From NCBI GenBank assembly GCA_050951545.1, contig JBMNJG010000003.1, positions 96,001 to 160,000 of the forward strand: 64,000 nt of DNA, in the 5' to 3' direction. Origin of the DNA: Limnochordia bacterium (GTDB lineage Bacteria; Bacillota; Limnochordia; DTU080). The first letter of the stretch is position 1, and each line of letters opens with the position of its first letter. Below, piece by piece: positions 20,720 through 34,209 of the stretch. The translations under genes and the position numbers were made by a program. The notes beneath the pieces are model-generated. The model searched no databases. It saw only the letters and a program-made list of their open reading frames with translations, and was not told the origin of the DNA.

Positions 20720-20755
20720 AGCAAGGGGTCCTACCTGTCGATAGGACCCCCTGCT
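20720..20755. terminator. intrinsic terminator hairpin (original tRNA operon terminator, likely bidirectional)
   Basis: GGGGTCCTA...TAGGACCCC inverted repeat next to the displaced tRNA 3' end. Confidence 0.7.
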
Positions 20756-20800
20756 GGTAGGGAAGAGCGGACTCGAACCGCTGACCTCCACGATGTCAAC
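20755..20800 (-). repeat. att site: displaced 3' half of tRNA-Val(GAC)
   Basis: GACCTCCACGATGTCAAC (20783-20800) is identical to 31079-31096; the rest forms a T-arm, acceptor strand and CCA. Confidence 0.92.
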
Positions 20801-21516
20801 TATATTCAGCTCAGAATTGCCTCTCTGCGCCCGTGTTCGCTTGCGTCCGAATGTGGCCTGTATGCTGGCCTTTGGTTATTCTCGCCGACTTCGTGTTGTT
20901 CGCTGGTGTCGCCCCGTTTCCGGTCTATTGGCAGTACTGTGGCAGTACAAAATAACGCTTTGTCATAGGTGCGCCCGCTACCGATACCTGTTGCCGCGCG
21001 GTGAACAGTGGCGCGGCCTACTTTGTTTTCCGCGGCAACCGCGTCAATGGTTTTGGGCAAGTTATCACTTTGAGAACTTGCCGCCGCCCGCCCGCTCCCG
21101 CTCGTGCCGCCGCTCGGGCGCCCGCTACCGCCGTCCGCGCGGTGACGTGGGGCCTTGTTTGAACGTCGATGCGCATCCGTCCAGCTTGACTTCTCACTCC
21201 CGCGGTCCCCGCCGTGACTTTGCCGTCGTTCGCGCCGCCGGGTATTCCTTCCCGTCCGAACCGGTGACTGTTGCAGGTGTAGACATTTGTCTACACCTTC
21301 GGCTGTCGGTCTGCTCGCACCGTGTCATGTGGCTGAACCCCCAACCGCCCCGCAATGCGCCGCAGGCTCCAGCCTTGTTGGCAAACAAATGGCCTTCATA
21401 GACGCCGTTTTGAGCCACGCAAGAAGGGCGCAGGTGTAAAGAGTGCCCCACGCCGTCTACTCGCCTAGAAAGGGCCTTCCTGTGCGCCTGGCAGGGTTCT
21501 CGCTCGCCAGACAGGG

Positions 21517-21544
21517 GAAGCCCCAAGGTTTCCCCTGGGGCTTC
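21517..21544. terminator. hairpin at the end of the element's leftward operon
   Basis: GAAGCCCCAAGG-TTTC-CCTGGGGCTTC-type inverted repeat. Confidence 0.5.
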
Positions 21545-21572
21545 GCTACTCCGTCCGTTTTGTGAGCTACAC

Positions 21573-22405
21573 TCAGGCGCCTTCTGCTAGGTGCTTACCG
21601 AACTCCGCCGCGAATTCATCAAGCAAGGGGTTCGTCACCGGGCCGTCGTCCGTTACACCCTCCGCCCACCATGTGCTTGCATCTGCTGCTGCGCCCTTCA
21701 CCGCGTTCTGTAGCAATAGACGGTCAAAGCCGAGCTTGTCATCTGTGTTCTTGTGCAGCTCTTCCTCGTATTGCTCCGCTCTGGAAACTAGGTCTGCGTA
21801 CTTTGGGAAGGTCTCAGCGAACGCCGCTTCACTCAACTGCTCCAGCTCCGCCCGCTTCGTCGTGATGGTCCGCAAGGTACGGTTTTGGGCGTCGATTCGT
21901 TGCTCTTGCGTTTCAGGGAAGAAGCTGGGGCCTTCTGTCGATTGTGTCAGCTCCTCGATTCGCCTTAAGGCCTTGTCCATGTTGCGAATCCAAGCATAGC
22001 GCTGCGCCTTGTTGGTTGTGTATGTTGTCCCTTCCTTGAATGCCGCTACCACGTCATCGGGCTTGCGCGCTAGGTTAATCTTTGCCTCAACTTCCCGGTC
22101 AAAGATTAGAATCTCGTTGCCGAACTGCGAAGGGGAAACCAGGTCACTAGCAGACTGCCGGAAGTCTCGCGCCACCGCTTCGCAGTAGTTTTGAGCTTCA
22201 CGCGCTAGGGCTACACTGTCGCCATATGCCTTCTCTAGCCTTTGGGCCGCCTGGCGTAGCGCCTCGAACTGGTCGTAGCGCTTCAAGTGACATATCAGAG
22301 TAGTACCGCCAGCGCGGATTGGCAAACACCTGCGCCACGTCCTCCTTAAACTCGTCGATAGCCTGTTGGATAAGCGCCCGCCGTTTCTACGCTCCACAAC
22401 TCCAT
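21573..22405 (-). CDS. hypothetical helical/coiled-coil protein (5' end probably frameshifted)
   Basis: 274-aa ORF; a plausible N-terminus (MELWSVE/KRRALIQQAIDEFKEDVAQ) lies in other frames after the RBS at ~22420. Confidence 0.6.
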
Positions 22406-22674
22406 TGCCACCACTCCGCTCCTTGTTGGTTTAGCGCCGAGACCGGGTTACCGCCAGTCCCGCCGGTCCCTTGCTTGTTTGGTGCCCACAAGCCGCCGCG
22501 GTCGCGCAGGGAACCGTCGATAACCTCATCAATGTTCGCCACGCCGCCCTTGTCGTCAAGCTGAACCTCGCCTTTGTGCAGGGCAACGATACTCTGGGGA
22601 GACTTCGCCCCGTGCTCTGCCGCCTTCGCCACCAATGCCGCCTTAACGATTGCGTCCTTCTGCCACTGCTCCAA
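22387..22674 (-). CDS. phage scaffolding protein-like (GP20-like C-terminal region)
   Basis: KAALVAKAAEHGAKSPQSIVAL...VQLDDKGGVANIDEVID...LW...GTGGNP resembles scaffold C-termini; AAGGAGGT RBS before TTG 22674. Confidence 0.55.
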   Translation of the reverse strand: MEQWQKDAIVKAALVAKAAEHGAKSPQSIVALHKGEVQLDDKGGVANIDEVIDGSLRDRGGLWAPNKQGTGGTGGNPVSALNQQGAEWWQWSCGA

Positions 22675-22687
22675 CCTCGCCACCTCC

Positions 22688-24172
22688 TTAGCGCTCATCA
22701 CCTGGAACGTGCTGAACACTGAACTCGTAGACATACACACCGTCCCGCCGCGCCCGTTTGCGCATGGTCTCCATCTGGTAAAGCAAGCTCGACACTTGGG
22801 AGTCTTCGTCACTCCAAGCAGGAGCAAGGTTAATCCTGCCCGTCTCTAGGGTGCCGACCTTGTGGGCTTGCTCCTCCGCCGCTAGGGCCGCCAGGGCCAC
22901 CGCCGTAACGTGGTCGTCGTGCCCGCCGGAAGGATGGTCAAGCCGCCAACTGTTGCGGTTTTGCACTACTTGCAGGCGCCGCAGCTCTTCCATCAGCTCT
23001 TCATGTGGATAGCACTTCAACAAGCCGTCCCGAATGAGTTGAAGCAGGTGGCTGTCGAGCTTTTGCCGGAAAGCCGTGGTAAAGCGCTGGTCTACGCATC
23101 GCAGACCACTTGCCTGCAAGCGCTCCACCAAGCCTGCCGCTTGCCAGAAGTCACAGGAAACTACCAACCTCTTGAACGCGCGATTCACTAGCAGGAGATC
23201 GTCCTCAACGTCCGAAAGAAGCACCCGCTCTTCTCGCGAACCTTGCCACGTCCTCAGACTGTCAACCACCGTCTTTTGCCCTTCGCGGTGAACAATTGCT
23301 CGCACCGTTCTGTCATGCACTAACCCCAGATCGACACCAACGAAATACGCAACGCCATGCTTGCCCTCCACCTGCCGGGTTAGAGTGTTGTCGAACACCC
23401 CCTGCACCTCGTCTTCTGTGAGCACAGAACCAGATGAGCTGACCCATTCGTTCAGGTGTAACCGCCGGAAAACCTCAGCAGGTAATAGGCGCCGCTGCTC
23501 CTCCAACCATTCCTCTTTGATCCAACTGGCACACTGGCCGCGGCTCTTGAAGTACCAGCCTGGCGTGTTCTGTGCCAAGTGGTACAGCTCTTCGGACCAA
23601 TGCCCAATCACTCCGCAGGTTCCGATAGTCACGAACCGGCAACCTGGAACCTTGCCTGTTGCTGAGAAAAGCGCATCGAATAGGCGCCTGTCGGGCCATT
23701 CGGCAAGCTCATCGCAGCATATCCAGGTGGGTAGAAGCCCGTAGGCCGAAGGTGCGTCCGACGATAGCACCGTTAGTCTGGCGCCCGTTGCTGGAACCGC
23801 AATGCCGTCCTTAGTTATCTCTGCGTTCATCGCCAGGAGCTGCGTCCGCCGAATGTAGCCTGTAGCCAGCTCATGCAGCAGACTAGCCTGGTCCTTGTCC
23901 ACCGCTGCTGCATAAAGACGCCCGCCCTTGGGGCCTAAAAATAGCTCCGCCACACACTCCGCCGCCAGGTCCGAGGTCTTACTGTGGCCGCGAGGTCGCC
24001 AAATGGAAGCATTCGGCAAGTCCTGCCGCCTGTCGAGCGCCGCCAAGTCCTCCGCTTGCCAGGGTTCCAGGGAGGCGCCGTAAGAGCGCCCGTCAGGCAA
24101 GACTAGCACCTCCCGCCGGAATGTCATTCTGTCATCCTTCCAGCGCTCTAGCGCCGCCGTTAGCCGCTCCAT
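22688..24172 (-). CDS. phage terminase large subunit
   Basis: Walker A-like RPRGHSKTS, Walker B ICCDE, IGT coupling motif, RNase H-like GVDLG...HDD; GGAGGT RBS. Confidence 0.88.
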   Translation of the reverse strand: MERLTAALERWKDDRMTFRREVLVLPDGRSYGASLEPWQAEDLAALDRRQDLPNASIWRPRGHSKTSDLAAECVAELFLGPKGGRLYAAAVDKDQASLLHELATGYIRRTQLLAMNAEITKDGIAVPATGARLTVLSSDAPSAYGLLPTWICCDELAEWPDRRLFDALFSATGKVPGCRFVTIGTCGVIGHWSEELYHLAQNTPGWYFKSRGQCASWIKEEWLEEQRRLLPAEVFRRLHLNEWVSSSGSVLTEDEVQGVFDNTLTRQVEGKHGVAYFVGVDLGLVHDRTVRAIVHREGQKTVVDSLRTWQGSREERVLLSDVEDDLLLVNRAFKRLVVSCDFWQAAGLVERLQASGLRCVDQRFTTAFRQKLDSHLLQLIRDGLLKCYPHEELMEELRRLQVVQNRNSWRLDHPSGGHDDHVTAVALAALAAEEQAHKVGTLETGRINLAPAWSDEDSQVSSLLYQMETMRKRARRDGVYVYEFSVQHVPGDER

Positions 24173-24377
24173 TACCGCCACCTCCCAACTCCCGCAAACA
24201 CTCTCGCAGACAGGCAATTAACTGTCCTTCGCCTTCTTGCGCTACACTCTGGGCAACCATCCGCGCCACAGGATTGGTTGTCGCTTCTAGGCCTTTCAGA
24301 GTATCAATGAGTACGCCGATAACATCGGTCATGTCCACCTGCACCGTCTCACCCGTTCTCAGTCTGAGCGAAGCCAT
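24132..24377 (-). CDS. hypothetical protein
   Basis: 81-aa ORF with GAGGTG RBS within the terS-terL operon. Confidence 0.6.
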   Translation of the reverse strand: MASLRLRTGETVQVDMTDVIGVLIDTLKGLEATTNPVARMVAQSVAQEGEGQLIACLRECLRELGGGGNGAANGGARALEG

Positions 24378-24481
24378 TGCCGCCACCTCGCCTTAAGATA
24401 CGCTTGCACATGACGCCGCTTCAGGCGCCACACAAGCCCCAAGCTCCCGCCGATGATTCCAGCCACCACCTGCACTGCCAT
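24359..24481 (-). CDS. small hypothetical protein (40 aa, hydrophobic N-terminus)
   Basis: AGGAGGT RBS; MAVQVVAGIIGGSLGLVWRLKRR...; overlaps the downstream gene. Confidence 0.5.
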   Translation of the reverse strand: MAVQVVAGIIGGSLGLVWRLKRRHVQAYLKARWRQWLRSD

Positions 24482-24493
24482 GCTCAGCACCTC

Positions 24494-24625
24494 CTACGCT
24501 GTCTTGCCCTTCGTCTTGCCGGGTACCATGCGCTTGCCGCACTTGGTGCAGATCGGCGCCGTCTTGCCGATGTACACCGTCACCGCCCGCTTACACTTGG
24601 GGCATGAGTACGTCTTGGCAGCCAT
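24494..24625 (-). CDS. small zinc-ribbon protein (43 aa)
   Basis: AAGGAG RBS; MAAKTYSCPKC...ICTKCGKRM. Confidence 0.65.
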   Translation of the reverse strand: MAAKTYSCPKCKRAVTVYIGKTAPICTKCGKRMVPGKTKGKTA

Positions 24626-24641
24626 GTGCTCGCTCCTTCCG

Positions 24642-24824
24642 CTAGGCCGATTCAACTAGCCTGCTCCTGTGCTGGTGCCCACAAGACAAGCAGCGAAGCT
24701 CCACAAAGGTAATGCCTGCAAGCTGTGGCGCCACACACTGTTTGCGCCGCTCCCGACAAGACTTAACGCCACACTCCGGACATCTAAGCCAAGTGTCAGT
24801 AATCTCGAATGTGCGTTTACGCAT
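24642..24824 (-). CDS. small zinc-finger protein (60 aa)
   Basis: CPECG...CLSCG; start overlaps the terS stop. Confidence 0.65.
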   Translation of the reverse strand: MRKRTFEITDTWLRCPECGVKSCRERRKQCVAPQLAGITFVELRCLSCGHQHRSRLVESA

Positions 24825-25314
24825 CGCGTTCCGCCTCCTTTCGACGTGTCTCCAGCTCAGCCAAGGCCTCAGCAAGTCCTGCCGCTCGCCCCTGTGTGAG
24901 TCCTAGCTTCGCCCGTGATGCCGGGCTTAGTCCTAGACGGTCAAGGAGCTTGGCTGCCGTCTCAATCGCTTTGAGCTGCATCTCCACCACAGGACGCAGC
25001 TTCCCCTGATCGTTGACAAGTCCGTGCTGCGCTATATACTCCTCAGCTTGCATCACCTTGCGAATCGCTACCGCCGCCAGCTCCAAGGCAACCTCGTCCG
25101 CAGGTCGTAGGTGTGAGATGTTATCACCTGCAAGCAAGTCCTTGATCTGTTGCGACACTGCCTGCACCTCGGGCTGTCCCGGGTTAATAACCGTCACCCC
25201 GTGCTGGTCTCGTTTCTCTCTAAACGGTTTCAGGTTGGCCAGCGCCCGCGCCTTGCCTTCTGGCGTCTTGGGTCCGCCCTTCCCCTTGCCTTGTTTCTTG
25301 CCTAGTTGTGTCAT
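24817..25314 (-). CDS. terminase small subunit-like protein (P27 family-like)
   Basis: GPKTPEGKARALANL N-terminus, P....Q....LGLSPASRAKL C-terminus; upstream of terL. Confidence 0.8.
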   Translation of the reverse strand: MTQLGKKQGKGKGGPKTPEGKARALANLKPFREKRDQHGVTVINPGQPEVQAVSQQIKDLLAGDNISHLRPADEVALELAAVAIRKVMQAEEYIAQHGLVNDQGKLRPVVEMQLKAIETAAKLLDRLGLSPASRAKLGLTQGRAAGLAEALAELETRRKEAERDA

Positions 25315-25334
25315 GTCAGCACCTCCGATGCTCT

Positions 25335-25359
25335 TCTATTGGCAGTACTGTGGCAGTAC
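25335..25359 (+). repeat. 25-bp exact copy of the att-arm repeat at 20924-20948 (tandem TGGCAGTAC; also 30974-30993)
   Basis: TCTATTGGCAGTACTGTGGCAGTAC at both loci. Confidence 0.9.
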
Positions 25360-25512
25360 GCCGTCCGTACACCGCTATTTGATGGGCTTTTTTCGCGACG
25401 TCTTAGGTGACTACTATGTGTTCGTACGCTTGTTCCCCCATGGGGAAGGCCGCCAAAACGTGCCCGCCTGCCAGCTAAGGACCTGTAGGCGCCGTCACGT
25501 TCTACTCGTGTT

Positions 25513-26055
25513 CTAGCTGCCGGGTTCTGCTCGATACGCAACGTTGTCAATCCTTTCTAATCCGTGCCCGTCGGTGAACAGTGCCCGCCCAAGGGCCGTG
25601 CAGAACCAGGTGGTATCGGGCGTGCCACCATCCACCTTCGTCACCATGACACCTGCCACAAGCAGCTTCGCCTTGATGACACTGTGTAGCTCGCCCGCTG
25701 GCAGATTCGCATCAATGACTAGCATGACTTCATCCATGGCGAAGGCTACTGTGCCATTGTCCAGGTGCTGCCGGGCCGCCGCCACGTCCCTGCATAGCGC
25801 CACCTGCTCGCCTAGTGCCGCCGAATCTAGTAACGCCCAACCCCTCGCATGGAGTTGCCGGGTAGCTTCGGCAACGTCCTCCGCTGTCGGGCCTCGAAGC
25901 AACTCCATCAATGCAGGCTTGTGGCGCCGTAGTGCTTCCCGCAGCTCGTCCGTCACCGCGCCCTGCGGGTCAGCTACCACGCGCAGCTTGTCGCCGTTTA
26001 CCGATAGCTCGATGCCACGCCGTCTACACTCCATCAGCAACTGCATGGGTGTCAT
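25513..26055 (-). CDS. hypothetical protein with a TubC N-terminal docking-like domain
   Basis: LLMECRRRGIELSVNGDKLRV...LREALRRHKPALMELL; start overlaps the helicase stop. Confidence 0.7.
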   Translation of the reverse strand: MTPMQLLMECRRRGIELSVNGDKLRVVADPQGAVTDELREALRRHKPALMELLRGPTAEDVAEATRQLHARGWALLDSAALGEQVALCRDVAAARQHLDNGTVAFAMDEVMLVIDANLPAGELHSVIKAKLLVAGVMVTKVDGGTPDTTWFCTALGRALFTDGHGLERIDNVAYRAEPGS

Positions 26056-27800
26056 AGCTCGAACACCTCCGAAGCCTTATTCCCCTCCGCGGCAGATAGT
26101 GTGTGTTTTCTTGCGTCAGATGTGTCAGTTGCGTCAGACATACCTTGTAAACCGCGCAACGAAGGGCTTTTCCTGTCTGACGATGTATCTGACGCAAGTA
26201 TGTTCGATGATGGGTTTGCGTCAGACGTTGCGTCAGACGCAGAAACCCCGTTGTTATCGCCTTTAGGGGCCACATCTGACGCATCTGACGTGTCTGACGC
26301 TACTTTGTGGGTACTATCTATCCTCACAAGTCGGGTCCCCTTTTTGTCGCCGGCGCGCCTGTCCAGGTCAACATTAATGCCAACCTGTCGCAAAGCCGTA
26401 GAGCTTCGCCGCAACCGGTTAGACAGACTTCGGGCCGAACCGGGCCACGTTTTGGCGTTTCGCATCTTATCGCTCGCGTGGTCCTCCAACTCATCCAATA
26501 GCTCCGTCATGGTGCCCTCGAAGCCGTCCGGTTTGTGCTTCAAAAGCTCACACACCGTGAATGCTACTGCGTCACTTTCGATGCCAAGATCTACGGCCTC
26601 GGCGCGGTTCTCGGCATACGCCTTAAGCGCTGTGCCCTCGGGCCACCCGAAAGCCTCTTCTGCTGCCGTTGCCCACACCGCAAAGTCAGCCATGCGCGGC
26701 TTGCGCGGCAGGTGGACAGAATCCACTCGCCGCAGCGCGGTCGATACGCCATCAAGCAACGCACCAAACACCCGCGGGCGAACAAGCTCCCAATCTCGCC
26801 AGAAAGTTGCCTCGGTTTTCCTCTCAGCATCGGGTATGGGTGGCAGAACCAAATTTAGCGAACGGTCTGCTAAGTCATGACGGGTTGCAATGTCGTCAAT
26901 GCCGTTAAGAATCACGGGCCGCTGGTAGTCGAACAGGGCTTCTTCGCTGTCTGTGTACAGCTCACGCGTTGCGAATCCGCCGCCCGTTGCCACGCGACAG
27001 ATAGCATCCGACAACCACACAGGAACACCCGACAAGTTGTCCAAACAGACCAACCAAGCGTTACTAGCATGAATCGCCAAATCCCGTTCGTTGCGCGGCG
27101 CCGTTCTAAGGGGTACGCTCGATGGGTCAATCAACGAAACCAATACCCGCGCCGTTATGCTTTTTCCCGAACCCTGTTCGCCTAGCAGAATCCATACAGC
27201 GTAGGGGCCGGTAGGTCGGTAGCACGAAACTAGCCCAGACACCACCAATACCCTTTGTCCTTCGTCGGGTATGTTGACGAAAGGCCACAGCTCATCGATG
27301 CTCCCGCCCGCCACAGGGTGAGGAAGGGGCGCCATGCCCCGCCCGCGCCGAAAGCGCACAGGAGGGTTAGATATGACTCGCCAACCTGTAGCGGTCACCT
27401 CTACCGCCTCCCAAGCATCGTTAGCCAAGTCAATATATATGCACCCCTGCGCCTCGCCCACGCGGATAAAGACGTTGTGCTGTTCGCCTTTGTAGCAAGC
27501 AATCGCAGTAATGGTGTTGCGCGCATCGGTCATCGCCTGCGAAGACGGGCCGTTCTCGTGCTGTTCGTAATATGTCGCCTCTAGCCATCGCCTAAAGCCG
27601 CTAGACATCACGGGCCAATGTTCCCGATGCTCATCACAAGTTACAGTCGCCCAAGGCTCGAAGTCCTGCGTGTGCCATAGCTCCGCTGTCTTGGCAATCT
27701 CAATCAGCAGTTCCCTTTGAGTAGGCTTGCCCTTCGCGGATTCGTCGTCTTGCTGCTCCTTCGCTTTGGCCAATGCATCCAGTCCGTCCAGCTCTTGCAT
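26052..27800 (-). CDS. P-loop NTPase / SF3-like replicative helicase
   Basis: Walker A GEQGSGKS, Walker B VCLDN, ILNGI, DLADRS arginine finger, C-terminal winged-helix-like region. Confidence 0.85.
   Translation of the reverse strand: MQELDGLDALAKAKEQQDDESAKGKPTQRELLIEIAKTAELWHTQDFEPWATVTCDEHREHWPVMSSGFRRWLEATYYEQHENGPSSQAMTDARNTITAIACYKGEQHNVFIRVGEAQGCIYIDLANDAWEAVEVTATGWRVISNPPVRFRRGRGMAPLPHPVAGGSIDELWPFVNIPDEGQRVLVVSGLVSCYRPTGPYAVWILLGEQGSGKSITARVLVSLIDPSSVPLRTAPRNERDLAIHASNAWLVCLDNLSGVPVWLSDAICRVATGGGFATRELYTDSEEALFDYQRPVILNGIDDIATRHDLADRSLNLVLPPIPDAERKTEATFWRDWELVRPRVFGALLDGVSTALRRVDSVHLPRKPRMADFAVWATAAEEAFGWPEGTALKAYAENRAEAVDLGIESDAVAFTVCELLKHKPDGFEGTMTELLDELEDHASDKMRNAKTWPGSARSLSNRLRRSSTALRQVGINVDLDRRAGDKKGTRLVRIDSTHKVASDTSDASDVAPKGDNNGVSASDATSDANPSSNILASDTSSDRKSPSLRGLQGMSDATDTSDARKHTLSAAEGNKASEVFEL
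26113..26300. repeat. mirror-symmetric array of ~10 GCGTCAGA/TCTGACGC iterons (putative origin)
   Basis: Copies at 26113, 26122, 26131, 26176, 26188, 26218, 26230, 26275, 26284 and 26293. Confidence 0.85.
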
Positions 27801-28417
27801 CACGCCACCCCCTCTGCATGGCGTTTGGCGACCCAATTGACGATGCCAAGCACCTCATATGCAGGAACAGGTGGCTCACATCGCATCCATGCCCACGCAA
27901 CCACCAATGCCGCCGTAACGTATGGGTCGACACCTCGGGCCAGTAGACTTCCGCTCAGAGATCGAATCGTCTTGTAACGGTCATCGCCCGTAGCTCCTAG
28001 AATGACATGCCGCCTCCAACCGTCAAGAGGGGAATGCAACTCCAGCGCTAGGGGAACAGGTTGCCGTCTTGGTTCATCGGGTTCACCCGCCGCTGTGATC
28101 GCCGCCGTGATAAGCTGCTCCAGCTCTTTATCGCCTAGAAGAAGGCCATGCTGTTGCTCTAGCTCAGTGAGAATTTCGCGCAAAATAGGCCGCGGTACGA
28201 AATACCGGGCCAGGCATTCAGCCACATGGATAAGGCGCTGCTTACCGTCCTTCCGGGCCGTCTCGCTAGAGCCGGTCTCCTCGCGCAGCAGGTCCATGAC
28301 TACCCGTTCAGCTACGGGTTCAGGTGCGCCGTTGTCGCAGCATGGCCGCGAATAAGCGCACATTCGCCTTCGCCTGTGGTAAACTGGTGGTGTGTCGCTG
28401 TCTCCACATGAAGGCAC
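27800..28417 (-). CDS. primase C-terminal (PriCT-like) domain protein
   Basis: GDDRYKTIRSLSGSLLARGVD...CEPPV...EV resembles PriCT-1; start uncertain. Confidence 0.6.
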   Translation of the reverse strand: MPSCGDSDTPPVYHRRRRMCAYSRPCCDNGAPEPVAERVVMDLLREETGSSETARKDGKQRLIHVAECLARYFVPRPILREILTELEQQHGLLLGDKELEQLITAAITAAGEPDEPRRQPVPLALELHSPLDGWRRHVILGATGDDRYKTIRSLSGSLLARGVDPYVTAALVVAWAWMRCEPPVPAYEVLGIVNWVAKRHAEGVA

Positions 28418-28477
28418 CTCCTGGCGCCACCGTTACCGCGGTGGCGCTCTGTCGTTGTTGTCGTTGTCAACAATGCA

Positions 28478-28690
28478 CTAACCATCACACTGCACCAACC
28501 CTCTGGCAGCCAACTCCACCAAGGCTTTCCTTGGGACTCGCCGGGAATTGCCGATCTTGACGTAAACCAACTCACCACTAGACATAAGCTGGTAAACCCT
28601 GGTCCGCCCAAACCCCAGCCACTCGCACGCCTCGTTCACCGTCATCAGTCCGTCTGACAAAAGAGCTTCCGTTCCTTTCTGCGCCTTCAT
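28478..28690 (-). CDS. excisionase-family helix-turn-helix protein
   Basis: LMTVNEACEWLGFGRTRVYQLMSSGEL..VKIGNSRRVP; AGGAGG RBS. Confidence 0.88.
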   Translation of the reverse strand: MKAQKGTEALLSDGLMTVNEACEWLGFGRTRVYQLMSSGELVYVKIGNSRRVPRKALVELAARGLVQCDG

Positions 28691-28818
28691 TATGGATAAC
28701 CCCCTCCTGTTACGTGTTGGTATGCGTTCACCATAACACACATGGACAAATTAGGCAACATGTGTTACTGTGTTTTTAGCGTAACGGCAACACCATTCAG
28801 CGATAGGAGAGGATTGCC

Positions 28819-29770
28819 ATGCCGAATGAACCTGTGTTCTTTGCCTGGAGTGTGCCTACGAGCGGCTACAAGTGGACCGACGCCAAGACGGTGGAAGGGA
28901 GAACCGGGCCGTTTTCTGATAGCACACCGGAATGTGACCGGAAAAGTCAAACGTTACCAGCCACTGCAACTGCACTCAGCGCTTTTTCGGTCGTTTGCGG
29001 ACATCACACCAGACAGAGGACGACATCCTGCTCATTTGCTAATGAGTACGGAAGGCTTACTGCACCGGGCGAGATGCTTATAGTGCCATCGGAAAGGAGC
29101 CCCAGAGAAGGCACCCTCGATGCCGGGGAACCGCTCTCGTTGTGGGTGTCTGAAATTGCTGATATGAACCAAGCGCTTACCTTGTGGGATATGGCGCAGG
29201 ACCGCGATGTTACTGGCCTTAGCGATTTCATTCACTGGTCAGGGAACAGTGTGCATTACGATAGTGGGCCAGGGCTAGAACGAACCACCAGGACCGTTGC
29301 ACACCTTGACGAGGAACCCCGCCTGAGTCGGTATTCTGCTGCATGGTGATCTTGTTACCCCCGCCCTCTTCCAGGTCCAACACGTTGTAAACCAGCACCT
29401 TGAAGGGCGACTATCGCCAAAGGTACTTTGGGACACAGACTATACGCACTTGAACCTGCACTTCATGCCGGAATCGCTCATAGGCGCCCTTTGGCTGCAG
29501 TTCGCCCAAGCCATTGACGGCAACAAGACTTACCGCCGTTGTGACGAATGCCGGGCATGGTTTGAGCTTTCGCCGGAGGTAGCGCGCACAACCAAACGCT
29601 TCTGCTCAAATGCCTGTAGGGTAAAGGCCTACCGCAACCGTAAAGCTACCGCCCGCCAACTCCATAGCAAAGGGGTTCGGATTGAAGAAATAGCTACCCG
29701 CCTTGACTCCGATCCTGAAACGGTTGCAGGTTGGGTATCCGACACTGAAGGTAACACAAAGGAGGAATGA
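28819..29770 (+). pseudogene. CGNR zinc-finger (ABATE-like) regulator with C-terminal HTH, multiply frameshifted
   Basis: Pieces in different frames: YQPL...ALFRSFADI, FANEYGRL, LIGALWLQFAQAI..RRCDEC...RFCSNACRVKAYRNRK. Confidence 0.7.
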
Positions 29771-29774
29771 CGGC

Positions 29775-30959
29775 ATGGCAGCCAAGAAGGGGCAAGGTTC
29801 TGTGAGATTCCGGGCTGACAAGGGCCTTTGGTGTGGCCAAGTCAGTCTAGGGTACCGCACAGACCAAGCGGAAAGCGCACGGTTCGTAAGACGTTTTACG
29901 GCAAGACTCAGCAGGAAGTACTCGATGCCATGGCGCGCCTGCAGGGCGACATTCTAGCAGGCAAGCCGATCCCCAACGACAGGCTTACCGTGAAGCAGCA
30001 CTTTGAAGACTGGTTGCGCTCCAAGAAAGCTGGCGTCGCCAGGAGCACCTATACGCAGTACGAAGGGCATGTTCAGACTCACATTATCCCTTCCTTGGGA
30101 CGTATCAAACTGAAGGACTTGGATTACCGCCGCATAAACGCCTTCTACGATGAGCTACACAACCGGGAAGACAAACTCGCCCCGCGCACCATCTACGACA
30201 TTGGCGCCATCCTACGCTCAGGACTTGAAGACGCAGTGCGCAAAGGGCTTGTACCCTCCAATCAAGGGAAACTGGCTGCAAAGCTCAGTAGGGGAGACAA
30301 GGAAGCTCGCTTTCTCAACCCCCAGGAGCTGGCCAGCTTCCTCGAAGCCTGCAAGGGCGAACGTCTAGAGAATGCATTCATTCTAGCCATCAATACCGGT
30401 ATGCGTCCCGGCGAATGGCTTGGCCTGTCGTGGGATGCCGTCGATCTGCAACAGGGAAAGCTCACTGTCAGGCAAGCGCTTCACGAAGTCTCGGGGAAGG
30501 TATATCTGGGCGACGTGAAAACGAAGGCCAGCAGGAGAACCATCTCTTTGCCGAAGGACGCCGTTCAAGCATTGCGCCGACAACGCAAGCATCAGACTCG
30601 AAGAGCAGCTTGCCTCTGGTGGCAGATGGGTCAATGAAGAGAACCTAGTCTTCACCGATACCCAAGGCGGTCTCCTACGCCGCACCAACGTATCTAAACG
30701 TGATATGAAGCGCATCGTCCGCCGTGCCGATCTCGAAGACGCAACACTGCACACCTTCCGCCATACTCACGCCAGCCTGCTGATCGCCGCAGGTGTCGAC
30801 ATCAAGACAATCTCCCGACGCCTGGGCCATGAGAATATCACGATCACGCTTCAGACCTACGGCCACTTGATGCCGGGCCAAGACGAACGGGCCGCCGACG
30901 TGATGGATACCATTCTCGCCGGGCTGCCATCTGTACCTCCCATGGCCTCCCGCCTCTAG
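29775..30959 (+). pseudogene. tyrosine integrase with two frameshifts (~29865, ~30596)
   Basis: KKGQGSV arm-binding N-terminus, TGMRPGE, VKT, HTFRHT, RLGH and TYGH catalytic motifs. Confidence 0.92.
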
Positions 30960-31010
30960 CTACCAAAACCTAATGGCAGTACAATGGCAGTACAGAAGCA
31001 ACAAATGCTG

Positions 31011-31037
31011 AAAGCCCTACCGCTTGGTAGGGCTTCT
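31011..31037. terminator. element-supplied terminator downstream of tRNA-Val
   Basis: AAGCCCTACC-GCTT-GGTAGGGCTT. Confidence 0.75.
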
Positions 31038-31050
31038 AGCTGCTGTTTTC

Positions 31051-31127
31051 TGGTGGGGAAGCACGGACTCGAACCGTGGACCTCCACGATGTCAACGTGG
31101 CGATCTAACCAACTGATCTACTTCCCC
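31051..31127 (-). tRNA. tRNA-Val(GAC), integration target
   Basis: Cloverleaf GGGGAAG...CCACG-TTGACAT-CGTGG...GTTCGAG...CTTCCCCACCA. Confidence 0.96.
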
Positions 31128-32298: not shown

Positions 32299-34209
32299 GC
32301 CATTTCCGGCACATGACGGCCACTTTTCGGTTGTAGCTACATTTTCTGGGTCTATGGCTGCGTTGGTGGCTTGATGTCTAGATAGCGCGGAGGGGCCTCT
32401 AGCTGCAGTTTTTGCAGGAAATCCTTTTGAACTTCACCGGGTTTGGTGGTTTGCCAGACCTCCCCACAATCCGTTGAATGGATGCCTACCTGCATGGTGT
32501 CAAAAGCCTTTTTCATCTGATGCCATGTGGCCTCCGTAGCATTTTCCGCCACGCGAATCAGCAGCAGTGAAAGCCAACATAGTAGAGCGTGAGCGCGGAT
32601 GCGTTCGTCCTTGCGATGGTAGACAGGACGGATGTCTACTACATGCTTCAGGTCGTCAAACACGCGCTCAATGTCCCAGAGCTGCTTGTAGCCCAGGACG
32701 ATGTCCTCAGCACTCAGCTTGTCGTCTGAGCTACTGACCAGGTATTTGCCGTCGAGCTGAGTCTCCTTGCGAATCTTCGCCTTGTCCAGGCTAAGCACGC
32801 CTGCTCGATTCTGCTGCAGATAGCGCCCGAAGGTGGGGTGCGAACGCAACTCGCACGCTCCCTTGGTGTGGGCTTCGCCCTCGAGCTGTTCTAGGGCCTC
32901 CAGGCAGCGTTCGATCTCGGCAACGATGTCGTCACGCTTCAAACGATCACGTTTGGCCTCCGTAGGATTACGTACGACTACGAAGCGTCTTTGGGCTGCA
33001 CCACCCTCATCAATCAGTACTTCCTTGATTTCGAGACCGTTGGCCAGTTTCTTGTACCTGCCGCGGCGGCTGAGGGCTTCCGCTGGCTCGGCGCCTGGTC
33101 CTAGGCACATTTTCTCACCAATGATGTAGTGACCGCCCGCGCCCTGTAAGACGCGCTGGTTGGCGGCCGAGTTGAACCCTGAGTCCATAACCATCACGAC
33201 CCGGCCCAGCTGCCAATCGTTCAGGTCCTTCTTTACTGCCTCGACTAGGTTCTGATCACAGCTATTGCCGGGGAAGGACCAGCATCTCACGGGTATGCCG
33301 CTACGAGTGATGGCGAAGGCGATGGTAACCTGCGCTAGGTCGTGCCGTTTCTGCTTGTTTCGACCGCGCTTACGCAGCCCTTCCCAAGTCGGCTCGCCAT
33401 CGTCGCCACAAATGTCGTCATCCGTATGCTCGATTTCGAAGTAGACGTTGGTCGTATCGACGAAGATCAGATCAACCTCGAGGTTGAAGAGGTTGACCAC
33501 CGAGAAGAACACGTCATGCTGAATCTTTTCATCGGCCTCGAGAAGGAAATCCATCGCCCGGTAAAGCTGATGAACCTCAACTTCATCAAGCCCTGAGATA
33601 TGTACCTTTTTGGCTACCCAGTGCTCGAGTCCAAGCTTACTGCATGGAGCCAACGCCCGATTCGCCACCATGGCGAAGATAAGCCGTTCGATCGGCGTAG
33701 CAGACTCTCGCTTACGCAGAAGAGTCTCGAGCACCTTTCGGATGCCCAAACGTTGCCACAGACCGTCTAGCAGCCATGTTCCGCCCAACTCCCTAGATCC
33801 CTTGAACTCAAAGGGCTGGACGTTGCCCGCTACTACCTGCGCTTCAGCGGCTTCATCCGGCTCCAGATATCTGGAGATGCTATTGACCAGACGTCGCAGA
33901 GCTTCCGTATCCAGGGCATCGGCCGGGCCAAGGTTATGAAGCACCTTGGTCTTTGAAACTCCCTTCACAGGGTCTCTATAGTTATGACAGAGTTGCACAT
34001 ACCGAAAGGTCTTGTGACTCTTTTTGACGGATACGGTTCGCATATACATTGTAACTATATTATACCACAGGTAAGCGATTAAGGGAAGGCCGAAAACAGA
34101 TAGGGTTGTAACTACGCGTTTTGCGGTTGTGGCCACACGTTCGCGCCCAAAAAACGCTATACTAGGCCATTTCGCATTTCGGTTGTGCCCCTCAACTGTT
34201 CAACGCCAG
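32246..34209 (-). mobile_element. IS1634-family insertion sequence
   Basis: Perfect 15-bp TIRs CTGGCGTTGAACAGT (32246-32260 / 34195-34209), extendable to an imperfect 29 bp; flanks ACCAA/ACCAG. Confidence 0.9.
32352..34049 (-). CDS. IS1634-family DDE transposase
   Basis: FVDTTNVYFE, VMDSG, YKQLWDIERVF, RPVYHRKDERIRAHALLCWL. Confidence 0.93.
   Translation of the reverse strand: MYMRTVSVKKSHKTFRYVQLCHNYRDPVKGVSKTKVLHNLGPADALDTEALRRLVNSISRYLEPDEAAEAQVVAGNVQPFEFKGSRELGGTWLLDGLWQRLGIRKVLETLLRKRESATPIERLIFAMVANRALAPCSKLGLEHWVAKKVHISGLDEVEVHQLYRAMDFLLEADEKIQHDVFFSVVNLFNLEVDLIFVDTTNVYFEIEHTDDDICGDDGEPTWEGLRKRGRNKQKRHDLAQVTIAFAITRSGIPVRCWSFPGNSCDQNLVEAVKKDLNDWQLGRVVMVMDSGFNSAANQRVLQGAGGHYIIGEKMCLGPGAEPAEALSRRGRYKKLANGLEIKEVLIDEGGAAQRRFVVVRNPTEAKRDRLKRDDIVAEIERCLEALEQLEGEAHTKGACELRSHPTFGRYLQQNRAGVLSLDKAKIRKETQLDGKYLVSSSDDKLSAEDIVLGYKQLWDIERVFDDLKHVVDIRPVYHRKDERIRAHALLCWLSLLLIRVAENATEATWHQMKKAFDTMQVGIHSTDCGEVWQTTKPGEVQKDFLQKLQLEAPPRYLDIKPPTQP

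Follow-up and report, generated by a model that had tools for sequence, protein, structure and literature searches.

Can a phage satellite bring its own packaging motor but rely on another phage for the head? The question is raised by a 10,296-bp integrated element in a 64,000-nucleotide stretch of the genome of a Limnochordia bacterium (positions 96,001 to 160,000 of contig JBMNJG010000003.1; hereafter the window, to which coordinates refer unless another locus is named, the genome as a whole being termed G000). The element encodes both the small and the large terminase subunit (TerS and TerL). Judged by its gene content, it is a phage satellite variant that is neither a phage-inducible chromosomal island (PICI) nor a capsid-forming PICI (cf-PICI). 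We favour the reading, at a probability of about 0.55, that it is a satellite bringing its own motor, which would fill proheads built by a helper phage and borrow the helper's tails.

Gene content and classification

The element has the integrase, the site-specific integration and the TerS expected of a PICI but departs from that definition in possessing a TerL. It has the TerS and TerL expected of a cf-PICI, but neither a major capsid protein nor a portal was found. Scans of 21 element open reading frames (ORFs) against Pfam and PHROG gave no significant match to capsid, portal, tail or HNH families, bearing out the original prediction of an element without capsid, portal or tail. None of the unassigned ORFs approaches the 368–563 residues of relatives' portals. 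The longest is a 276-residue helical ORF that the original prediction had singled out as the place where a capsid or portal fold might lie hidden. No such fold appeared there or among the other hypothetical proteins; the ORF is predicted to be all-alpha with low confidence (predicted local distance difference test, pLDDT, 52), is shorter than relatives' portals and capsids, has only two relatives, both near-identical, and gave no match in the Atlas and none in Foldseek at E≤0.001, the model being poor. Adaptor, connector and HNH genes were likewise without a match in the packaging block, where small divergent ORFs can escape hidden Markov models (HMMs). Sid, Psu, delta and the core genes of PLEs (elements resembling phage-inducible chromosomal islands), which mark P4-like and PLE satellites, had no Pfam or PHROG match, and a Foldseek search with a low-confidence model returned none at E≤0.001. 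Nor do the attachment (att) sites enclose the head, tail and lysis genes of a complete prophage.

TerL looks functional and under selection. A Walker A-like motif (RPRGHSKT), a Walker B motif (CCDE) and the nuclease residues D281, D287, D419 and D420 are conserved in alignments; full-length relatives occur at 98–99%, 71–74% and 60% identity, with the motifs kept at 99, 72 and 60%. Twelve of 13 single-nucleotide polymorphisms (SNPs) in terL are synonymous among the best-supported 40 of 452 variant rows. The TerL profile reaches 1,524 clusters at 1e-30, and the best PDB match is 6z6d, which we take to be the HK97 TerL. Together with the P27-type TerS, this match suggests cos packaging for the element.

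Directly downstream of terL lies a 95-residue ORF, most likely starting at 22674, that is homologous to part of Gp20-type scaffolds (PF06810, E 3.6e-5, under the curated cut-off). It was grouped by the Atlas with PF06810 clusters of 107–108 residues (0.94, 174 shared features), and five of five prophages tested from the same class have scaffolds that match it (best E 1.9e-7). These prophages were chosen for their PF06810 match, and terL, portal, scaffold and capsid were confirmed by PHROG in four of the five. No match was found in the cultured-phage collection, and no longer homologue was found. The scaffold-like gene originally proposed is only part of a normal scaffold.

Comparison with known satellites

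A class that has TerS and TerL and lacks capsid and portal was not met with in the literature searched, most subscription papers lying outside the search. In the SatelliteFinder scheme terL separates cf-PICIs from PICIs (PMC10085698). PICIs and Staphylococcus aureus pathogenicity islands (SaPIs) resemble the window element in their size of ∼10 kb, in an integrase from which a xis-replication-terS block diverges, in integrating at specific sites and in having no tail genes (PMC10085698; 10.1101/2022.09.08.507074). They use the TerL of the helper, whereas the window element encodes its own and has a zinc-finger regulator with no recognised Stl or AlpA pair. With cf-PICIs such as EcCIEDL933 the element shares its own TerS and TerL, the P27 type of TerS and the lack of a tail (PMC10085698; 10.1101/2022.09.08.507074); unlike them, it has a scaffold fragment in place of genes for capsid, portal, head-tail connector and HNH, none of which could be found. 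CpmB of SaPI1 is, like the 95-residue ORF, a short satellite protein related to the helper scaffold and encoded in the packaging block, but it copies the scaffold's C-terminal capsid-binding hook, whereas the window ORF matches the preceding domain with no hook identified (PMC5644958).

Another published case is NitKor-E1 of Ca. Nitrosopumilus koreensis AR1, an integrated element that has a tyrosine integrase and, of the genes of tailed viruses, TerS and TerL only; it differs in being archaeal, a single case and, according to its authors, likely a relic (PMC6563490). Integrative mobile elements encapsidated in virions (VEIMEs) and PICI-like tycheposons are also small, integrative and found in virions, VEIMEs being without capsid genes. 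They differ in that TerS or a capsid gene is named for them and the large terminase is treated as supplied by the helper, although TerL-bearing members could stand in the datasets or supplements of these papers (PMC9618062; 10.1101/2020.12.28.424599).

Relatives of the element

Loci around TerL relatives were fetched from viral (23), genome (80 of 123) and metagenome (80 of 138) sequences, together with locus L191; most are too short to judge. Absence was called with eleven local HMMs over all six frames and PHROG and Pfam scans of selected ORFs. Twelve of the loci fetched are att-complete, meaning that TerL and an integrase are enclosed by an att pair of at least 40 nt with a spacing of 7–17 kb. 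Six of these, L067, L079, L104, L107, L145 and L191, are headless, that is, without portal and capsid; they are tRNA-integrated and 9.4–14.6 kb long. One (L035) has portal and MuF only, and five have both portal and capsid. The window element thus has headless company. At close loci (at least 37% TerL identity and at least 3.5 kb downstream) portal and capsid are absent in eight of nine. L191, from the same class, shares 47% (helicase), 37% (TerS) and 45% (TerL) identity with the window and forms the sister branch of its group (support 100/97) in an IQ-TREE phylogeny of TerL (45 rows chosen from 101). The window TerL falls in a 22-row clade (99/97) in which no row with context has a capsid gene and two have a portal; one of these, L004, is nested in the clade on a contig that ends early. 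About 1.5 changes per site of TerL separate the window and L191, both headless.

Several headless relatives keep a prohead protease: XkdF (L191), Mu-gpI-like (L145, L122), DUF2213-like (L079, L051, L154) or HK97-type (L012), with no protease or scaffold match in L067, L104 and L107. In ordinary head operons protease and scaffold genes sit between portal and capsid. Their retention while both neighbours were lost suggests selection on them. Most headless elements also have a helical ORF of 155–290 residues near terL. That all these post-terL helical proteins form one Sid-like family is unsupported, since only subfamilies link; one subfamily with a good model (pLDDT 83) matched generic hairpins only (best Z 6.6). 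The genes after terL vary among relatives.

Among 95 genomes of the class only G000 and G042 carry the window-type TerL. The A2 profile at 1e-40 found it in none of 400 other genomes of a phylum-wide sample, and viral-contig scans with the window TerL, its closest relatives and its helicase returned no close relative. No TerL of cultured phages covers 80% of the query, the best being 26–33% identical.

Elements of 13–15 kb with capsid, portal and MuF make up five of the twelve att-complete relatives. These att-bounded elements (L015, L018, L028, L065, L071) carry terL, capsid, a conserved 170-residue gene, portal and MuF; a tape-measure gene is also present in some of them. Together they form a capsid-forming satellite lineage beyond the hosts named for cf-PICIs in the literature consulted. 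They open the alternative that the window element is a satellite of satellites, taking heads from capsid-forming islands of its own TerL family and tails from a third element. Its TerL would fit the portals of such islands more easily than that of an unrelated phage, and within the tree the headless L067, L079, L104 and L154 fall in the same half. The islands come from Planctomycetota genomes and metagenome contigs, however, with none found in G000; the scarcity of the window-type TerL in the class also argues against it, and the scaffold of the window points to SPP1-like prophages. We consider this alternative distinctly improbable.

Proposed function and its alternatives

Under the favoured reading of a satellite with its own motor, infection by a helper would lead to excision through the regulator, Xis and Int, and the helicase block would replicate the excised circle. 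TerS would bind a packaging site (not located) on the element itself, and TerL would cut this site and dock on the portal of the helper. Guided by the 95-residue scaffold-like protein, the capsid and portal proteins of the helper would go into proheads that the satellite fills, with tails and lysis supplied by the helper. SPP1-like siphoprophages of the same host class are the likeliest helpers, because their scaffolds are the closest matches among those tested.

In favour of this reading, no head or tail gene was found in the element or elsewhere in the 94%-complete genome G000, and TerL is full length. The six headless relatives, among which L191 shares helicase, TerS and TerL, the proteases kept by headless relatives, the scaffold matches and the contig ends at the borders of the element (below) also count for it.

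Several observations weigh against this reading. No helper was found in G000. The TerLs of the five candidate helpers have no significant similarity to the window TerL (E≥0.18), which leaves docking on their portals unexplained. The scaffold-like ORF aligns to residues 117–203 of a 266-residue scaffold, lacking the N-terminal coil and the last ∼60 residues, and it is the far C-terminus of the phage 80alpha scaffold that binds the capsid (PMC5644958). No HNH gene was found in the packaging block by Pfam and PHROG scans, although TerS and the PDB match lean towards cos. Packaging of the cos type can need an HNH protein; weak matches to two PHROG HNH families (E about 1e-4) occur in the C-terminal zinc finger of the regulator, whose gene lies outside that block. 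The integrase (in three frames) and the regulator (split) are frameshifted in the assembly, a point overlooked originally, and no attP joint was seen among the matches listed in sequencing runs. A sister element in the same genome has the same replicon but no terminase. Finally, the headless label needs five to six changes on the TerL tree, and a single headless clade is rejected (approximately unbiased test, p 1e-5), so that the headless state, as reconstructed from TerL, arose several times.

In one alternative the terminase serves mainly against incoming phages, whose DNA it would cut or whose portals it would block; it would protect the host population, and packaging of the element would be incidental. 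Selection on TerL without a matching portal would then be explained, a Wadjet cluster occupies the same tRNA-Val site in a same-genus genome, and satellite proteins aimed at packaging motors reportedly exist. TerS kept together with TerL beside a replicon and xis fits self-packaging better, and we judge this alternative quite unlikely.

Another alternative is a decaying remnant, in which a capsid-forming satellite or prophage lost portal and capsid, TerS, TerL and the scaffold piece are passengers, and any movement is due to the integrase and replicon alone. The frameshifts of the window copy, its partial scaffold and the rejection of a single origin all favour decay, as do L035, a plausible intermediate, the portal of L004 within the clade, the variable genes after terL and the interpretation of NitKor-E1 as a likely relic (PMC6563490). 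Against it stand the largely synonymous SNPs of terL, the absence of the checkable breaks from the alleles of other studies, the persistence of the headless state in both the window and L191 across their TerL distance, the lack of portal and capsid at nearly all close loci, and the retained proteases, since keeping a protease while losing both neighbours takes two deletions each time. On balance decay appears unlikely. Descent from head-encoding elements, named originally as a finding that would count against a new design, holds in part only: the TerL family includes capsid-forming elements and prophages, and headless members are polyphyletic. The intermediate design first proposed is supported in part: its gene content holds, and the hijacking of helper proheads is an inference.

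A broader proposal can be put forward more tentatively than the favoured reading of a satellite with its own motor, namely a widespread, repeatedly evolved class of motor-only satellites, tRNA-integrated and 9–15 kb long, which keep, besides TerS and TerL, a single part of the head interior (either a fragment of a scaffold or a prohead protease of one of four families) and whose TerL would dock on unrelated helper portals. Such a class, if true, would close the gap between PICIs, which have TerS only, and cf-PICIs, which encode the entire head. It would need a TerL working on a foreign portal, and what determines the specificity between motor and portal could then be tested directly. Such elements would probably be overlooked or wrongly assigned by SatelliteFinder models, and virus surveys based on TerL would take them for phages. 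Headless TerL elements occur in several phyla.

State of the window copy and population variants

The window copy is damaged or mis-assembled. Besides the integrase and regulator, the helical ORF and the putative primase gene are affected by frameshifts, at their 5' ends, in the assembly. The stretch is present at no less than half of its words in 19 sequencing runs (20 rows, 15 studies), all from digesters, bioreactors or sludge. The close alleles in runs X1, X3, X6 and X13 are without the regulator's four extra letters and, at the second break of the integrase, without the one extra letter; at the first break net indels in X1 and X13 (+4) and X3 (−8) would each restore one frame, by piece-length arithmetic on the listed variants. 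The single-base extras look like long-read errors, and some assembly differences may be real, as the allele in X4 is without the deletions at 22387–22441.

Contigs end at 20800 in all four of runs X1–X4, and at 31108 in the same four. As these ends are branch points expected of the empty site (31-letter words), occupied and empty alleles likely coexist and the element is likely polymorphic in the host population. One piece from X13 ends at 31096, as expected from a circle, but another tRNA could cause the same. Protein P0121 is encoded on a contig of 10,354 nt, a length that suits a contig of the whole element and is not proof of a circle. No RNA runs containing the stretch are among the matches listed.

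Integration site and other features

The features of the element are collected in Table 1. The original claim of a complete element of ∼10.3 kb with both att sites is confirmed by the 47-nt direct repeats, whose copies are 89% identical, and by the tRNA-Val(GAC) gene, the integration target, of which the right repeat forms the 3' half. Each copy folds as a valid 3' half of a tRNA, the changes in the T-stem being compensatory. The left copy is likely the host's own tRNA end, because the same-family genome G005 matches it at 96% over 50 nt.

Table 1. Features of the element and its borders (window coordinates)
Feature	Coordinates	Strand	Remarks
Hairpin, 16 bp	20720..20755	-	likely original terminator of host tRNA; just outside element
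Left att repeat	20754..20800		displaced tRNA-Val 3' half, T-stem intact, CCA; 18-nt identical core 20783-20800
TGGCAGTAC dyad 1	20929..20948	+	likely integrase arm site; L001, L107 and L145 have similar dyads near both att sites
Helical ORF, 276 aa as P0132	21573..22405	-	5' end frameshifted in assembly; no family
Scaffold-like ORF, 95 aa	22387..22674	-	homologous to Gp20-type (PF06810) scaffolds over their central-to-C-terminal part
Terminase large subunit, 494 aa	22688..24172	-	PF03354 9e-8, phrog_9 1e-28
ORF, 81 aa	24132..24377	-	no family
Hydrophobic ORF, 43 aa	24359..24490	-	doubtful gene
Small zinc-ribbon ORF	24494..24625	-	homologue in sister element
Small zinc-ribbon ORF	24642..24824	-	homologue in sister element
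Terminase small subunit, P27-type	24817..25314	-	PF05119 2e-11, phrog_83; TIGR01558 6e-8 (below cut-off)
Dyad 2	25340..25359	+	∼25-45 nt upstream of terS; inside 25 nt identical to left-arm copy
TubC_N-domain protein	25513..26055	-	PF18563 2.7e-13
P-loop NTPase, likely replicative helicase	26052..27800	-	93% identical to sister element, 47% to L191
Primase C-terminal-like ORF ('PriCT', label unconfirmed)	27800..28417	-	5' end shifted in assembly
Excisionase-family helix-turn-helix (HTH) protein (xis, HTH_17)	28478..28690	-	
Regulator, C-terminal zinc finger and HTH	28819..29770	+	frameshifted; pieces 28819-29349, 29450-29770
Tyrosine integrase	29775..30959	+	two frameshifts in assembly; pieces 29775-, 29828-30637, 30705-30959 in three frames
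Dyad 3	30974..30993	+	likely integrase arm site
Hairpin	31000..31047		likely element-supplied terminator for restored tRNA
Right att repeat	31050..31096		
tRNA-Val(GAC)	31051..31127	-	integration target

The TGGCAGTAC dyad (9-nt) occurs three times in the element, where 0.01 would be expected by chance, and these are the only copies in the whole of G000. The internal copy may mark an old (fossil) element end or be an operator for terS. As a general feature an internal dyad was rejected, since dyads stand at both ends in four of 13 elements and a third copy only in the window element. A promoter scan of the element gave fewer sites than shuffled sequences. None of 227 extracted spacer records of clustered regularly interspaced short palindromic repeats (CRISPR) matches the element.

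The gene order first described stands, and int, xis, TubC-N, terS and terL are confirmed by HMM. The 'PriCT' and 'helicase' labels are not: neither ORF has a Pfam, PHROG or NCBIfam match at E≤0.001, and the labels are based on position, a P-loop motif and a single weak match to phrog_695 (E 0.049). A cluster of short direct and inverted repeats of the TCTGACGC type lies at the 3' end of the helicase gene (26113–26300), is also present in the sister element and is a possible replication origin. That element (L001:3285-9933, G000:C11) is 6.35 kb long, is integrated at tRNA-Lys and shares the replicon at 89% DNA identity over 2.8 kb as well as both zinc ribbons. Its integrase is intact, its regulator is of the zf-CGNR type, and ∼300 nt of the integrase end are duplicated at its far end. 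As it has the replicon without the terminase, the packaging block is a module either gained in the window element or lost in the sister. Another integrase of G000 (L002:11477-12616, G000:C10) also lies at a tRNA-Lys(CTT), followed by cargo genes, with no phage genes in that stretch.

Further observations concern the relatives. L035 (L035:4598-16911, Desulfarculaceae) is a complete 12.2-kb element at tRNA-His with terL, portal, MuF and HNH and no capsid match. Downstream of terL, headless elements carry a sigma-70-like gene (L191:12789-13727) or a ribosomal S21-like gene (L107:12800-13078), and the headless L114 (5518-11638) has a family A DNA polymerase beside its integrase. In L030, L033, L042, L044, L058, L082, L087, L099 and about 20 further Planctomycetota loci, a conserved ABC-type ATPase, a GNAT protein and a gene of 130–175 residues precede a related terL, with no integrase or head gene found within the available flanks; these may be what is left of prophages, or else a packaging system that has been domesticated and dispersed.

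The tRNA-Val site is a hotspot: genome G004 has there an integrase 57% identical to that of the window, and the same-genus G001 has a Wadjet (JetABCD-type) cluster between tRNA-Val and a heparinase-like gene (L253:1259-7989). Beyond the element, a 594-residue transposase-like ORF (32352–34136) lies between a formate/nitrite transporter gene and a tRNA-Gly-Phe-Asp-Val cluster; the Val-Cys tRNAs of G005 lie next to its Gly-Phe-Asp-Val tRNAs.

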